Shown here piece after piece: positions 7,973 through 55,693 of a stretch of DNA of 64,000 nucleotides. The stretch spans positions 2,795 through 66,794 of the forward strand of contig CAZJYC010000004.1 of assembly GCA_964550165.1 (NCBI GenBank). Reading direction: 5' to 3'. Source of the stretch: an uncultured Eubacteriales bacterium (GTDB lineage Bacteria > Acidobacteriota > Aminicenantia > Aminicenantales > Aminicenantaceae). The notes below the pieces were generated by a model, which was given only the letters and a program-made list of their open reading frames with translations, did no database searches and was not told the DNA's origin. The translations under genes and the position numbers were made by a program. Numbering within the stretch: the stretch's first letter is position 1; each line of letters opens with the position of its first letter.

Positions 7973-8401
7973 ATGAGAATCAACAAAAAAATGAAAGACA
8001 ACAAAGACAGAGAACCAAAAACGTATTATCATATAAGCAGCGTTTCAAGGATGTTCAATGTCCATCCCCAGACCCTCAGACTGTATGAGAGGGAAGGGCT
8101 CTTAAAGCCCTCACGAAGCGAAGGAAACACTCGACTCTACACCGAGGATGACATAAAACAACTCAGAATCATACTGAACCTGACGCGCGACCTGGGAATC
8201 AATCTGGCTGGTGTGGAGGCCATCCTGAACATGAGACAGAGGATGGAACAAATTGAAGCGGAGGTGAACATGCTTCTGGAGTATGTAAAGAAAGAGTTCT
8301 TTGAAGGCAGGGAAGACGAATTTGAAATCAAAAGAGAGGATCTGGTTCACATAAGACCAACAAAAATAATAAAAATAAAGAAAGAGAGTAGCGAAGAATG
8401 A
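7973..8401 (+). CDS. hspR: MerR-family heat-shock repressor HspR
   Basis: VHPQTLRLYEREGLLKPSRSEGNTRLY, DLGINLAGV; follows dnaK-dnaJ. Confidence 0.88.
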   Translation: MRINKKMKDNKDREPKTYYHISSVSRMFNVHPQTLRLYEREGLLKPSRSEGNTRLYTEDDIKQLRIILNLTRDLGINLAGVEAILNMRQRMEQIEAEVNMLLEYVKKEFFEGREDEFEIKREDLVHIRPTKIIKIKKESSEE

Positions 8402-9246
8402 AGGATGACTATAGGGATTACTTCGATTCGAAAACCTTAAGAGCCTATCTCAATCAGATCTCCAAGTTTCCACCGCTTTGCCAGATTGAGGAAAAAAAGC
8501 TGGGAGAGCTTATCCAGAAGGGCGATAAAAAAGCACTCAGGGCATTGATTGAAGCCAATCTAAAGTTCGTTGTTTCCTATGTCAAGAGGTACAGGGGCAT
8601 GGGGTTGAGCATGTTCGACTTGATCAACGAGGGCAATCTGGGGCTCATCGAGGCTGCCAAGCGATTTGATCCGCGGCGGAACGTCAAATTTATATCCTAT
8701 GCTGTCTGGTGGATAAGGCAGGCCATCATCCATGCGCTCAGCCGGTATTCACGTACCTATTTTATTCCCCAGAAACTCTCTGACAAGATATCCGATATGA
8801 AGAAAAAGGCCGCTGAGCTGAAAGCAGAATTAGGGAGAAGCCCGACGAGGGAGGAGATCGCCCAAAGAATGGGCGTTGCCGCTGAAGATATCGAAGACCT
8901 GGAGATGTTGGATGGCAAGGATGTTTCTCTCAGCGACAAATATTTTGATGAAGATAGGGAGGTCGGCGACAGGATTAGAGACGACCTTTCTCCTTCTGTC
9001 GAATACCAGATTGTTAAGAATTCTATAAAGCAGCAGATTCGGGAGATCTTGAGGGAACTGGATGAAAAAGAAGCACTTGTGTTAAGATTAAGATTCGGAT
9101 TGGATGATGACACGCCACGAACTCTTCAAGAGATTGGAGATGAGCTCAAATTGACCAGAGAAAGGATCAGGCAGATTGAGAAAAAAGCCATGAGAAAACT
9201 ATCCCGCTCGAACAAACTTCAACAGCTGAGAGGGTATCTCAACTGA
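8398..9246 (+). CDS. Sigma-70 family RNA polymerase sigma factor (RpoD/RpoS/RpoH-like, lacking region 1.1)
   Basis: YLNQI, LIEANLKFVV, DLINEGNLGLIEAAKRFDP, SYAVWWIRQAI, TLQEIG...TRERIRQIEKKA; ATGA overlap with hspR. Confidence 0.93.
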   Translation: MKDDYRDYFDSKTLRAYLNQISKFPPLCQIEEKKLGELIQKGDKKALRALIEANLKFVVSYVKRYRGMGLSMFDLINEGNLGLIEAAKRFDPRRNVKFISYAVWWIRQAIIHALSRYSRTYFIPQKLSDKISDMKKKAAELKAELGRSPTREEIAQRMGVAAEDIEDLEMLDGKDVSLSDKYFDEDREVGDRIRDDLSPSVEYQIVKNSIKQQIREILRELDEKEALVLRLRFGLDDDTPRTLQEIGDELKLTRERIRQIEKKAMRKLSRSNKLQQLRGYLN

Positions 9247-9989
9247 TGACGGAAAATTTATGTCCTGAATGCCAGGGAACAGGCTGGATTCTTAAGGAAT
9301 CCAAGTCCGGAACTGTGGCCAAGCGCTGCAAATGCATCGAAGAGCAGAAGACTCAGATGCTTCTCGAGCGGGCGAACATTCCGAGAAGATATAGGGATTG
9401 TACATTCAAGAACTTCGAAATTCATAACGACTCCCACCAGGATGCCATAAAGATAGCCAAAAAATTTGTCAAAAACTATCCAGTTCAGGATATTGGGCTC
9501 CTTTTCCTTGGACCGTGTGGAGTGGGGAAGACCCATCTGGCTGTGGCCATCATTCAGGAATTAATCGAGAAGAAAGGCGCGCAATGTTATTTCTGCGATT
9601 TCAGGGAATTGATAAGAAATATCCAGAGCAGCTATACGCCCGATTCTACATTGACAGAATCAAACATTCTGGAACCTATCTTTGAGAGTGATGTGCTGGT
9701 GCTCGATGAACTGGGAGCCAAAAGAACAACAGCCTGGGTTGAGGAGACAGTTTTCTACATCATCAACAACCGCTACAACAACAAAAAGCTGACCATCTTT
9801 ACCTCAAATTATCTCGATACTGAGGAGGAAGAGGACACCAGGGATCCCTATTTTAAAAAGGGTGGGGAGACTCTGGTCGACAGAATTGGAGTTCGCTTAA
9901 GGTCGAGGCTCTATGAGATGTGCAAGATTGTTGAGATGTGGGGAAAGGACTACCGCAAGGAAATCAAACAGGCTGGCTATCGGTTCTGA
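9246..9989 (+). CDS. DnaC/IstB-like AAA+ ATPase with N-terminal Zn-binding CxxC..CxC (probable helicase loader)
   Basis: CPECQGTGW...RCKC, Walker A GPCGVGKT, Walker B LVLDELG, IFTSN, RLRSRLYEMC. Confidence 0.85.
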   Translation: MTENLCPECQGTGWILKESKSGTVAKRCKCIEEQKTQMLLERANIPRRYRDCTFKNFEIHNDSHQDAIKIAKKFVKNYPVQDIGLLFLGPCGVGKTHLAVAIIQELIEKKGAQCYFCDFRELIRNIQSSYTPDSTLTESNILEPIFESDVLVLDELGAKRTTAWVEETVFYIINNRYNNKKLTIFTSNYLDTEEEEDTRDPYFKKGGETLVDRIGVRLRSRLYEMCKIVEMWGKDYRKEIKQAGYRF

Positions 9990-10114
9990 TCCGAAACTCA
10001 GCTTGCGAACTATCCCAAAAAAGGCGCTGACGAATCCATTGATATTCTTCTATAATTCTGCTAAATTATGGACGATCGCTCCTCGGTAGCTCAATCGGCA
10101 GAGCGGGTGGCTGT

Positions 10115-10464
10115 AAAGAGGAGTAACGGATGAGTGACAACCGCACTTACCGAGACAGATTTGATAAGTGCATTTTGCTTTGTGCAAATTGTCACCGTGA
10201 AGTTCACTCCGGATTGCAGCTTCCACGAGAAATCGTGGTTGAAAAATCGGGTGAATTCAGGGAAGCCTTCGCTCCGTTCTCCGCGGAGAAAGGTAATCCT
10301 GAGCCAAACCCTGCCGTTTTCCAAAATGGCAGGGGAGGTGCAGAGACTAGAGCTAAAGCTCGTACCCTGACCGGGGTTCAGGGGAAGCGCCCGACACCCC
10401 AACTTCAATCATCTGGAGAGGGTGAAGAGATAGTCCAAGCCCAGAAGAAATTCTGGGGGTCTTG
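10115..10464 (+). ncRNA. Group I self-splicing intron (350 nt) at tRNA position 35/36
   Basis: 5' splice U pairs with G in P1 (exon GCTGT / GCAGC 10216-20); terminal G at 10464; P2 CCACGA-GAAA-TCGTGG; P3 TCGGGTG/CGCCCGA; P4 TTCAGG/CCTGAG; P7 GAGACTA/TAGTCC; J8/7 AAGAGA; P8 CACCC/GGGTG; P9 CCCAGAA-GAAA-TTCTGGG. Confidence 0.93.
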
Positions 10465-10474
10465 TAACCACTAG
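10130..10474 (+). pseudogene. Degenerate intron-encoded HNH homing endonuclease ORF (apparent internal in-frame deletion)
   Basis: RBS GAGGAG at 10118-23; retains only DKCILLCANCHREVH (C-terminal HNH strand with CxxC); frame continues through the ribozyme core to a TAG in exon 2. Confidence 0.72.
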
Positions 10475-10855
10475 GTTGCAGGTTCGAGTCCTGCCCGAGG
10501 AGCCATTTTGAACGATTCTTCAAACACATTGGGGCGGGGTTTTGCTCGTCTGCTTCGCGCTTTCTCTTTCAATTCCAATTCACATCATCTGGGCTATCCA
10601 TTCCAGCATGGCTAAAATTGGATGCCCTAGTTCTATGAAGTCCACTAGAATCTTTTTGAAAAGTACCATATAGTTGATTCCGACAGGCGAATTTATTCTC
10701 TTTTCAAGATAGCCCTGGGAAATTTTATTGAGGCCATAGAACAAAGAGCAAGCTCCCTGATTATGTGCGATGAATCATGGAATTGAGGATGCTTACTTCT
10801 CATCAAGAGAAATTGACCATAATTTCTTTCAGATTTATAATTATAGCAGACTTGA

Positions 10856-55608: not shown

Positions 55609-55693
55609 GGGCAGGTGGCGGAATTGGCATACGCGCTAGGCTTAGGACCTAGTTCCTTCTAAAGGATTGCGGGTTCGACTCCCGCTCTGCCCA
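55609..55693 (+). tRNA. tRNA-Leu(TAG)
   Basis: GGGCAGG/TCTGCCC acceptor, anticodon arm CTAGG-CTTAGGA-CCTAG, long variable arm, TTCGACT loop; CCA not encoded. Confidence 0.95.

Follow-up and report, generated by a model that had tools for sequence, protein, structure and literature searches.

Remnant of an HNH endonuclease gene in a bacterial tRNA-Asn group I intron: the two leftover ends probably survive as an RNA hairpin

Decayed endonuclease genes within introns, group I introns in bacterial tRNA genes, the endonuclease I-Ssp6803I in tRNA-fMet and the occlusion of a ribosome-binding site (RBS) inside an intron are already known. The parts of two papers that deal with I-Ssp6803I (PMC3984707, PMC3943268) describe a PD-(D/E)xK enzyme of the group I intron in Synechocystis PCC 6803 tRNA-fMet (Bonocora and Shub 2001), and give the anticodon region of the intron-less tRNA gene as its target. 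For the T4 td intron with I-TevI, the passage in PMC3984707 describes an open reading frame (ORF) that overlaps the intron core and whose RBS is occluded by long-range pairing, since the ribozyme can fold only if expression is held back (Gibb and Edgell 2010). The T4 nrdB intron has a defunct I-TevIII and the trans-acting MobE (PMC2790892). In collaborative homing, as outlined in the passage on it in PMC3984707, a free-standing endonuclease beside an ORF-less intron targets the insertion site (Zeng et al. 2009, Bonocora and Shub 2009). F-CphI is one such case (PMC6083498), and the cases given in the corresponding passages were in the phage protein-coding genes psbA and nrdB (PMC3984707, PMC6083498). 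T4 SegB is free-standing with a tRNA-Asn gene as its preferred site, and F-TflI, -II and -IV of T5 lie in tRNA clusters (PMC2330249). Here we describe a stretch of 64,000 nucleotides (nt) from an uncultured Eubacteriales bacterium of the lineage Aminicenantaceae (contig CAZJYC010000004.1, positions 2,795 to 66,794; this whole stretch is called the window), in which a tRNA-Asn gene is interrupted by a group I intron with the remnant of an HNH endonuclease gene in its loop L1.

No group I intron in tRNA-Asn and no HNH gene in a bacterial tRNA intron was described in the open-access literature searched, and 'Asn' is absent from the text of the 2014 review of bacterial group I introns (PMC3984707). 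It is very probable, taking all the evidence together, that an HNH homing gene has decayed in L1 of this intron, that its two ends were kept for an RNA stem, and that the frame running on through the ribozyme is a by-product.

ARAGORN with introns allowed identified a tRNA-Asn(GUU) gene at 10080-10505 of the window, on the plus strand like the features of this locus and of its upstream region given below, with a 350-nt group I intron at 10115-10464. The intron is inserted between anticodon bases 35 and 36 (GCTGT-intron-TAACC). The 5' splice site lies directly after T10114, the final intron base is G10464, and exon 2 starts with T10465. The Rfam group I intron model RF00028 scored 92.4 bits on this intron (E = 2e-22, gathering score 50), and virtual splicing by ARAGORN gave a 76-nt tRNA-Asn(gtt) with a cloverleaf and the GUU anticodon. 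Exon 1 (10080-10114) comprises the acceptor, the D arm, the 5' side of the anticodon stem and the loop bases C-U-G-U, ending in the splice-site U. Exon 2 (10465-10505, ARAGORN) supplies U36, the 3' strand of the anticodon stem, the variable loop, the T arm, the acceptor and GCCA. The intron-terminal G at the 3' splice site (10464), before TAAC, is kept in all relatives. In its default mode ARAGORN missed the tRNA-Asn and reported within the window only a tRNA-Leu, and the Rfam tRNA model likewise had no match to the window's tRNA-Asn. The sole tRNA that default tools gave for the window is an ordinary tRNA-Leu(TAG) at 55609-55693. Because default tRNA finders miss the gene, genomes of many uncultured phyla will seem to be without tRNA-Asn. 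The window allele was recovered without differences from contigs of four separate sediment-metagenome runs, which rules out an assembly artefact.

The internal guide sequence (IGS) of the intron, GCAGCT at 10216-10221, pairs with exon bases 10109-10114 (GGCTGT), so that L1 is 101 nt long (10115-10215). It contains a collapsed homing endonuclease gene and folds as one long hairpin extending P1. A Shine-Dalgarno-like GAGGAG at 10118-10123 stands 6 nt before the ATG at 10130. From there the remnant ORF (10130-10474; 114 codons plus stop, MSDNRTYRDRFDKCILLCANCHREVHSGLQLP...KKFWGSCNH) runs through the 3' strand of P1 to P9 and into exon 2, where it ends with TAG at 10472-10474 in the 3' strand of the anticodon stem. 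A preliminary description of this DNA, made from its letters only, had located GAGGAG, ATG and TAG correctly at these positions, and its loop of about 100 nt is the 101-nt L1. It had further suggested that an in-frame loss of the catalytic core had joined the two ends of an HNH gene, and our alignments confirm this. A search with the window ORF matched 327 database proteins, among them one identical to it (P0001). The best full-length homologues have 181-184 amino acids (aa; E ~1e-47) and contain both the N-terminal and the C-terminal segment, in order: MSDKRRY(S/A)DR, then 68 residues with CxxC, EFHH and a KDFGIS..GYTRSW insert, then LDKCILLCANCHREVHSGLQLP. The consensus of these relatives is MSDKRRYSDRREYLIEAVQKRRKKIRQMAI.YKGGKCQ.CGY.RC.EALEFHHL....KDFGIS..GYTRSW..IK.ELDKCILLCANCHREVHSGLQLPREIVVEKSGEF...KKFWG.CNH, and in them too the same translation continues through the ribozyme. 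Aligned to full-length relatives, codons 1-10 of the remnant (10130-10159, MSDNRTYRDR) are the N-terminus of the HNH protein, and codons 11-26 (10160-10207, FDKCILLCANCHREVH) are the C-terminal part of the HNH motif with the second CxxC and the last two His. Protein and DNA alignments show that the window fuses residue 10 to residue 79, with 204 nt (codons 11-78) missing and the junction at ~10158-10160.

The basic helix, the first CxxC, the invariant His52-His53 (the catalytic His-His) and the family-specific insert are all missing from the remnant, which thus has neither the catalytic His-His nor the first zinc knuckle of an HNH nuclease. The Pfam HNH profile matched the remnant alone only at positions 27-46 of 47 (E = 0.003-0.017, below the cut-off). 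No second nuclease copy was found in the window, where tblastn of full-length HNH domains matched only 10142-10219. Judged by its sequence, the remnant gene is dead and no nuclease can be made from it. L1 formerly held a ~98-codon HNH gene that began ~15 nt past the 5' splice site. Codons 11-78 of this gene were lost in one in-frame deletion of 204 bp.

To characterize the intron family, a survey was made with one genome per species, in which 176 loci were found and 80 of them analysed. ARAGORN with introns allowed detected tRNA genes in 75 of the 80, 63 directly as tRNA-Asn(GTT). The other 12 ('Thr' or 'Tyr') reflect ambiguous boundaries at the same CTGT-...G-TAA junction, and three of the remaining five loci are truncated at contig ends. 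Wherever both exons were present, an HNH ORF or remnant was located in L1 at the identical tRNA-Asn(GTT) site, with the exceptions of L064 and L073. By their record names the hosts span more than ten phyla and include Aminicenantes/Acidobacteriota, Nitrospirota, Deltaproteobacteria, Elusimicrobia and many phyla of the Candidate Phyla Radiation (CPR), as well as WOR-3, Planctomycetia, Rokubacteria, Omnitrophica, Acetothermia and Binatia. As in mobile introns, the nuclease is encoded within the intron and one insertion site is used in unrelated hosts. The preliminary description had expected full-length relatives to mark a mobile tRNA-Asn intron family, and the loci do contain full-length homologues of both peptide segments inside tRNA-Asn introns.

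Three size classes were distinguished. Introns of 501-655 nt have an L1 of ~305 nt (304-306 nt in full-length relatives of the window clade) that holds the whole gene, those of 343-408 nt are collapsed, and those of 196-268 nt are ORF-less with an L1 of 6-17 nt. The HNH domain, 96-107 residues, was intact in 52 of 57 long introns and interrupted by frameshifts or stops in the other five. In L014, L031, L040, L060 and L068 the intron has full length and the HNH gene is broken by a frameshift or stop without shrinkage. Such breakage is a second decay route beside internal deletion. L174 and L175 (L1 = ACAATGAAGAAAA(T/A)AGT) and the proteins P0064, P0044 and P0047 represent L1 loops of 17 to ~40 nt, and such very short loops still have an ATG at their start, in the frame that is open in the ribozyme (MKKIVQLP..., MSD-CHREIH...). 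These loops suggest a stepwise erosion from ~305 nt to 6-8 nt. L073 (760-1345, Berkelbacteria) contains exon 1, the HNH gene and the greater part of the ribozyme. After P7 it passes straight into sequence resembling a T arm and an acceptor; neither a P9 nor an anticodon-stem 3' strand can be recognised, and ARAGORN gave no tRNA. L073 may be a damaged gene.

Within the family, C37, H52, H53, C86, C89, H90 and H94 are invariant and C40 occurs in at least 90% of the sequences, while a conserved Lys occupies the Asn position of the HNH motif. Among solved structures, a profile built from 48 members matched best to McrA (E = 0.005) and to a group II intron maturase in its nuclease domain (E = 0.04). 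AlphaFold modelled residues 1-97 of P0014 with a predicted local confidence (pLDDT) of ~61-89, with strand-strand-helix elements at 49-53, 82-86 and 87-94. NCBIfam returned no meaningful family for the protein, and database annotations of the intron ORF are 'hypothetical protein' or 'McrA'. Sequence profile and model together point to a divergent HNH enzyme that narrowly misses formal thresholds.

The collapse of the gene is recurrent. A sigma factor, a DnaC-like gene and then tRNA-Asn follow in the same order in many loci, with 67-75% nucleotide identity. Because they share the upstream sigma-70 and DnaC/IstB-like genes, the collapsed loci are orthologous sites. Ten distinct deletion junctions were recognised: in the window, L058, L042/L044, L075, L077, L082/L088/L089, L083, L084/L085, L086 and L087. 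The deletions are 147-216 nt in size and all internal, leaving 40-123 nt on the 5' side and 19-63 nt on the 3' side; the window L1 retains 44 nt and 57 nt, respectively. Their breakpoints are more central than expected from random placement (p ~1e-3, range statistic on ten events). The window and L058 collapsed independently, because each keeps sequence that is missing from the other. An anchored DNA pattern search found only four loci. By these alignments, at least ten independent collapses occurred at the tRNA-Asn locus, each keeping both ends of the ORF.

The retained ends are complementary to each other. Among the relatives, the leader behind the 5' splice site can pair with the (E)-V/I-H-S/A codons ahead of the guide sequence. 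In the window the 5' strand of this L1-closing stem (GGAGUAAC, 10120-10127) overlaps the Shine-Dalgarno sequence, of which 10120-10123 are paired, and its 3' strand GUUcACUCC (10202-10210) consists of the V-H-S codons, as indicated by the minimum-energy fold and covariation. Compensatory versions of the stem among lineages are GGAGUGA/UCACUCC, GGCGUGAAC/GUUCACGCC, GGCAUGGAC/GUCCAUGCC, AGCAUGAAC/GUUCAUGCU, GCGUGAAU/AUUCACGC and GCAUGGAU/AUCCAUGC. Over 64 distinct introns the mean duplex energy of cognate strands was -11.55 kcal/mol vs -9.68 +/- 0.31 kcal/mol for mismatched ones, and none of 10000 permutations of leader and 3'-segment partners was as low as the cognate energy. At minimum energy, 10105-10224 folds into one long hairpin of -45.5 kcal/mol (shuffles -29.3 +/- 3.5, z = -4.6). 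At its base the 5' strand of P1 (10109-10116, exon GGCUGU followed by intron AA) pairs with 10214-10221 (UUGCAGCU, codons L-Q-L), which holds the IGS and the 3' strand of P1 and is complementary to exon 1. Above it follow GGAGU/ACUCC and AAC/GUU at 10120-10127/10202-10210, then AUG/CGU, then GUGACAA/UUGUCAC at 10134-10140/10189-10195, so the closing stem takes in the Shine-Dalgarno bases and the start codon.

The claim of the preliminary description that the collapsed gene still has its own RBS stands for the presence of the sequence, while GGAG also forms one side, the 5' one, of a conserved stem whose other side is the ...VHS codons. Because GGAG is this stem strand, its survival needs no translation. 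In L087 the CxxCH codons are lost and the CACUCU strand is retained, and the zinc ligands are broken or lost in L077 and L084; collapsed forms hence conserve the RNA strand rather than the peptide motif. Since the ORF ends are complementary, covary and bury the RBS, the surviving 'CxxCH..H' is better explained as RNA than as protein. The ends would extend P1 to one hairpin and bring the 5' splice site and the guide sequence together. Deletions removing either stem strand would be lost, since tRNA splicing must work, and this would account for both ends being kept in every collapse and for the motif outliving the protein. Covariation and folding suggest that a long L1 needs the stem for P1 formation, hence the survival of the ends, and that the two leftover ends probably survive as an RNA hairpin needed by the intron. 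The stem would also hide the RBS and restrain translation of the nuclease once L1 is fully transcribed; to judge from the covarying pairs, the RBS may well be occluded in vivo.

Several points weigh against the explanation by a decayed HNH gene with its ends kept as RNA. The full-length domain matched positions 1-47 of Pfam PF01844 with 20.0 bits, narrowly below the cut-off of 21.4, and the top Foldseek matches in the PDB, although all HNH nucleases (Cap5, Gme HNH, Cas9 HNH and T4 endonuclease VII), had E values of at least 0.07. Our search for RNA data found no metatranscriptome of the source organism, and RNA runs shared only 15-18% of words with the locus, and these words come from other organisms, where core or exon sequence is conserved. 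The collapses retain at least 40 nt on the 5' side vs ~26 nt required by the stem, an excess that is unexplained. Per nucleotide, the stability of the collapsed loops does not exceed that of 900 internal deletions simulated with similar ends (P = 0.77). The ORF-less relatives presumably splice with a 6-17-nt L1, so that the stem is needed only while L1 is long. Finally, nine of the ten deletions are multiples of three, which a purely RNA-level account does not predict. Selection for extra-stable collapsed hairpins was ruled out by the simulated deletions: because these are no less stable, stability beyond that of the kept ends was not selected, and a 7-bp GCACUUA/UAAGUGC stem over the window junction is no evidence of selection.

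The stability of the simulated deletions and the dispensability of the stem in ORF-less introns would also fit a different account, in which deletion hot spots (microhomology near the EYL/LLC codons) together with a small sample left both ends in place without any selection on the stem. Several junctions do cluster just past ...REYL and just ahead of ...LLCANCH. However, the ends covary across phyla in full-length introns too, where there is no deletion; the breakpoints occupy ten different positions; and L087 loses the adjacent motif yet keeps the stem strand. We regard hot spots as an unlikely cause of the pattern, though the least unlikely of the alternatives.

Slightly less likely still is that the 114-codon remnant is translated and functional, as a peptide or by timing or gating tRNA-Asn splicing, with its frame under selection. 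The bias towards multiples of three holds when only events found by methods blind to the N-terminal frame are counted (six of seven, binomial p ~0.007), and at least 12 further in-frame junction types occur among database proteins. Six short database ORFs sampled for out-of-frame collapse were all ORF-less introns, with no out-of-frame collapse among them. A Shine-Dalgarno sequence and start codon are present in all collapsed forms, but the conserved stem pairing accounts for their retention. The zinc ligands or the entire CxxCH motif are gone in L077, L084 and L087, the N-terminal length kept ranges from 3 to ~33 codons, and frameshifted full-length pseudogenes persist. A role for translation of the remnant is kept open because of the in-frame bias, the one such observation.

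The frame beyond L1 bears on the same alternative. In the window clade it is open for ~85 codons, to the exon-2 TAG, which could speak for translation. However, exon 2 is reached only in this Aminicenantes-like clade, whereas in Nitrospira, CPR and other clades the ORF stops at many ribozyme positions, between 20 and 298 nt short of the 3' splice site. Residues 98-182, the tail of the 182-aa protein, have a pLDDT below 50 and are predicted to be disordered, free-standing homologues end 5-18 residues past the last His, and length changes in the core, including ribozyme loop indels, are multiples of 3 in only three of six lineages. Conserved selection for read-through of the ribozyme was considered and rejected on account of its restriction to one clade and these frame-free length changes. 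The last His codon is only 8 nt from the guide sequence, and the gene is therefore without room for its own stop codon. With no stop before the guide sequence and a ribozyme frame open by chance in the clade, the ORF would simply run on. Because stops occur elsewhere, the tail is disordered, free-standing homologues are tail-less and core lengths are frame-free, the read-through seems to be a tolerated, clade-specific by-product. The suggestion of the preliminary description that translation through the core modulates splicing thus finds no evidence here. A related proposal, that the L1 cassette is a translation-coupled RNA switch which outlived the nuclease and gates tRNA-Asn maturation, is similarly doubtful. 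A ribosome starting at the Shine-Dalgarno sequence and ATG would read across the guide sequence and the ribozyme and terminate in exon 2, and its passage would set when P1 and the core fold and hence when tRNA-Asn matures. If true, the switch would explain why the start codon, both strands and the frame are kept in almost all collapses, and the maturation of a tRNA would be gated by translation of its own intron.

That a short L1 is the ancestral state, later enlarged, or an assembly error is very improbable: nothing specific favours it beyond the fact that short-read metagenome assemblies can collapse repeats, whereas the remnant codons have their homologues at the two termini of a conserved 98-residue domain, with order and frame kept, close syntenic loci such as the window and L058 differ in junctions that are not derivable from each other, four runs assembled the identical allele independently, and the junction has no internal repeat.

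The gene in L1 probably once had homing activity. Some Aminicenantes genomes have a tRNA-Asn gene with an ORF-less intron directly beside a free-standing homologue of 103-112 aa that ends in a stop codon of its own. The homologue lies upstream in L037 (1501-1830), L062 (1501-1809), L059 (1501-1815), L038 (1501-1809) and L054 (497-814), and downstream in L066 (1907-2242) and L069 (1910-2245). The upstream copies share the window synteny and follow the DnaC-like gene. This arrangement looks like collaborative homing in bacteria. In L064 (1496-1989, Saccharibacteria) the free-standing homologue stands directly before a tRNA-Asn gene that has no intron. The 3' half of the tRNA is then partially duplicated (CACTGTTAAGGATAAGGTCGTAGG...), as if by an insertion event.

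Homologues are also common in phages, and on viral contigs the HNH family is encoded in at least 571 stretches. Among 66 distinct viral loci examined, 62 are in phage tRNA arrays; 41 have tRNA-Asn as their closest tRNA within 450 nt, and four have tRNA-Asn on both sides (L093, L097 and L104, for example). L095, L096, L100 and L102 are other examples among the viral loci L090-L169. In GenBank, 472 phage records have homologues annotated 'HNH endonuclease', and the family occurs in cultured phages of Cronobacter, Bacillus and Bacteroides. In Cronobacter phage CR3 (L176) the HNH gene at 1111-1467 comes directly after tRNA-Asn at 1021-1093, and homologues with 43% identity occur in the tRNA region of T5-like phages. 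No group I intron was detected by Rfam in nine viral loci checked. In L119 (613-1149) the free-standing HNH gene is followed by a tRNA-Asn with a 206-nt ORF-less insert that Rfam recognises as a group I intron (67 bits), the only viral locus with an ORF-less intron beside the HNH gene. L114 (1501-2267) likewise has a free-standing HNH gene and then a tRNA-Asn with a 194-nt insert, which Rfam does not confirm as an intron. According to the 2014 review, phage introns observed until then were all in protein-coding genes despite the many phage tRNA genes (PMC3984707). The location of the free-standing homologues supports, but does not prove, that the target of the enzyme is the tRNA-Asn gene. It gives only indirect support to the proposal of the preliminary description that the nuclease would cut the anticodon arm of the intron-less gene.

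Contigs of the same sediment metagenomes (runs X2-X4) join exon 1 straight to exon 2 (10114/10465), and the anticodon arm of these intron-less tRNA-Asn genes is the same as in the window or nearly so. Intron-less targets therefore exist in the sediment community. The exon depth in these metagenomes is 2-8x the flank depth, and the tRNA sequence is therefore common to many community members.

The ribozyme core of the window intron is intact, as far as pairing can tell. All helices of a group I core (P3-P8 with the P3/P7 pseudoknot, P1, P2 and P9) could be placed on the window. A P2-P9 model drawn by hand on the window was scored over 41 relatives against 500 shuffles. Standard pairs occurred in 89% of cells vs 76.7% in shuffles, and 44 of the 67 pairs had compensatory changes, a number reached by none of the 500 shuffles. 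The splice-site wobble is formed by U10114 with G10216, inside GGCUGUAA/UUGCAGCU, and GCAGC of the guide sequence is invariant in the 41 relatives. P2 is a CCACGA/UCGUGG hairpin with a GAAA loop (10223-10238), in which all six pairs are compensatory and 100% of cells paired. The 5' strand of P3 (10247-10253) pairs with its 3' strand at 10388-10394 (99% of cells). P4 (10257-62/10297-302) encloses P5 (10266-69/10290-93) and P5a (10272-76/10284-88), the whole covering 10257-10302. The segment 10303-10339 forms P6 (10303-05/10337-39) and P6a (10309-15/10328-34), and all seven pairs of P6a covary. The P7 strands GACUA (10345-10349) and UAGUC (10431-10435) are nearly invariant and paired in 98% of cells. 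P8 (10397-10422) has two parts, 10397-99/10420-22 and 10403-06/10415-18. P9 is a CCCAGAA/UUCUGGG hairpin with a GAAA loop (10440-10457), paired in 97% of cells and compensatory in five of seven pairs. Between P7 and P3' two hairpins are inserted (10350-10383), P7.1-like at 10350-61 and P7.2-like at 10365-83, which are paired in the window and its clade. Over all relatives 53% of cells in the P7-P3' segment pair, the other clade being differently structured. This segment is clade-dependent (A3 columns 157-203), with two hairpins in Aminicenantes and GAGGCUGAGGAGCC...AAUAA.GCC in Nitrospira. A P10 helix between exon 2 and the bases that lie 5' to the guide sequence showed only a weak match by eye and was not used.

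Upstream of the tRNA-Asn gene, a gene block at 7973-9989 encodes a MerR-like regulator at 7973-8401, a factor of the sigma-70 family at 8398-9246 and a DnaC/IstB-like ATPase at 9246-9989, the last with an N-terminal CxxC...CxC motif and the C-terminus ...AGYRF. This block beside tRNA-Asn is kept across Aminicenantes-like genomes. A candidate promoter, CTGACG-18 nt-TATAAT at 10027-10056, matched the consensus at 10 of 12 positions in a pattern scan and ends ~24 nt upstream of the tRNA 5' end.

One nuclease family thus occurs in four states: free-standing in phage arrays, beside an ORF-less intron, in the loop, and collapsed. These states make endonuclease-gene invasion, collaborative homing and the homing cycle directly comparable, and they offer a natural series for the formation and decay of mobile introns in an unusually informative family. 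Goddard and Burt in 1999 reportedly set out such a homing cycle of invasion, decay and loss. Because cultured phages carry the HNH family, these routes are open to experiment. Constraints also overlap in the family. Codons at the 3' end of the nuclease gene serve at the same time as P1-closing stem and guide sequence, and so a 'protein motif' persists past the death of the protein, which cautions against taking conserved ORF relics as coding.

Compared with I-Ssp6803I, so far as the passages on it describe that system, the window intron is likewise of group I and bacterial, and interrupts the anticodon loop of a tRNA with a homing endonuclease gene inside. It differs in that the gene is for a small HNH enzyme, sits in tRNA-Asn and extends over more than ten mostly uncultured phyla, and in that the window copy is a deletion relic. 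Subgroup IC3 includes the ORF-less tRNA introns of Azoarcus tRNA-Ile, cyanobacterial tRNA-Leu(UAA) and Agrobacterium tRNA-Arg. The window intron resembles these introns in its anticodon-loop site, its compact P2-P9 core of ~200-250 nt and the GAAA loops on P2 and P9, and the ORF-less family members of 196-268 nt resemble them too. Unlike them, it is inserted at 35/36 of GUU in another tRNA and has the two extra P7-P3' hairpins, which are not typical of IC3.

In td the ORF lies in the P6 loop. As in td/I-TevI, on the published outline of that system, the window-family ORF overlaps core sequence and its RBS lies in a long-range pairing. In contrast, the window ORF is in L1 of a tRNA intron and not in the intron of a translated mRNA, the strand that would occlude comes from the 3' end of the ORF itself, and the occlusion is here suggested by covariation only. 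The T4 nrdB/I-TevIII case is similar in that a degenerate endonuclease gene sits inside the intron and related free-standing HNH genes could act in trans, but here at least ten independent collapses of one gene, with an in-frame bias, occurred at one orthologous locus. L037, L038, L054, L059, L062, L066, L069 and the viral L119 resemble collaborative homing, although the gene is a tRNA gene, the hosts include bacteria and the same protein family is also found inside the intron. Like SegB and the F-Tfl enzymes, HNH family genes are embedded in phage tRNA arrays, often with tRNA-Asn nearest, while SegB belongs to a separate nuclease family.

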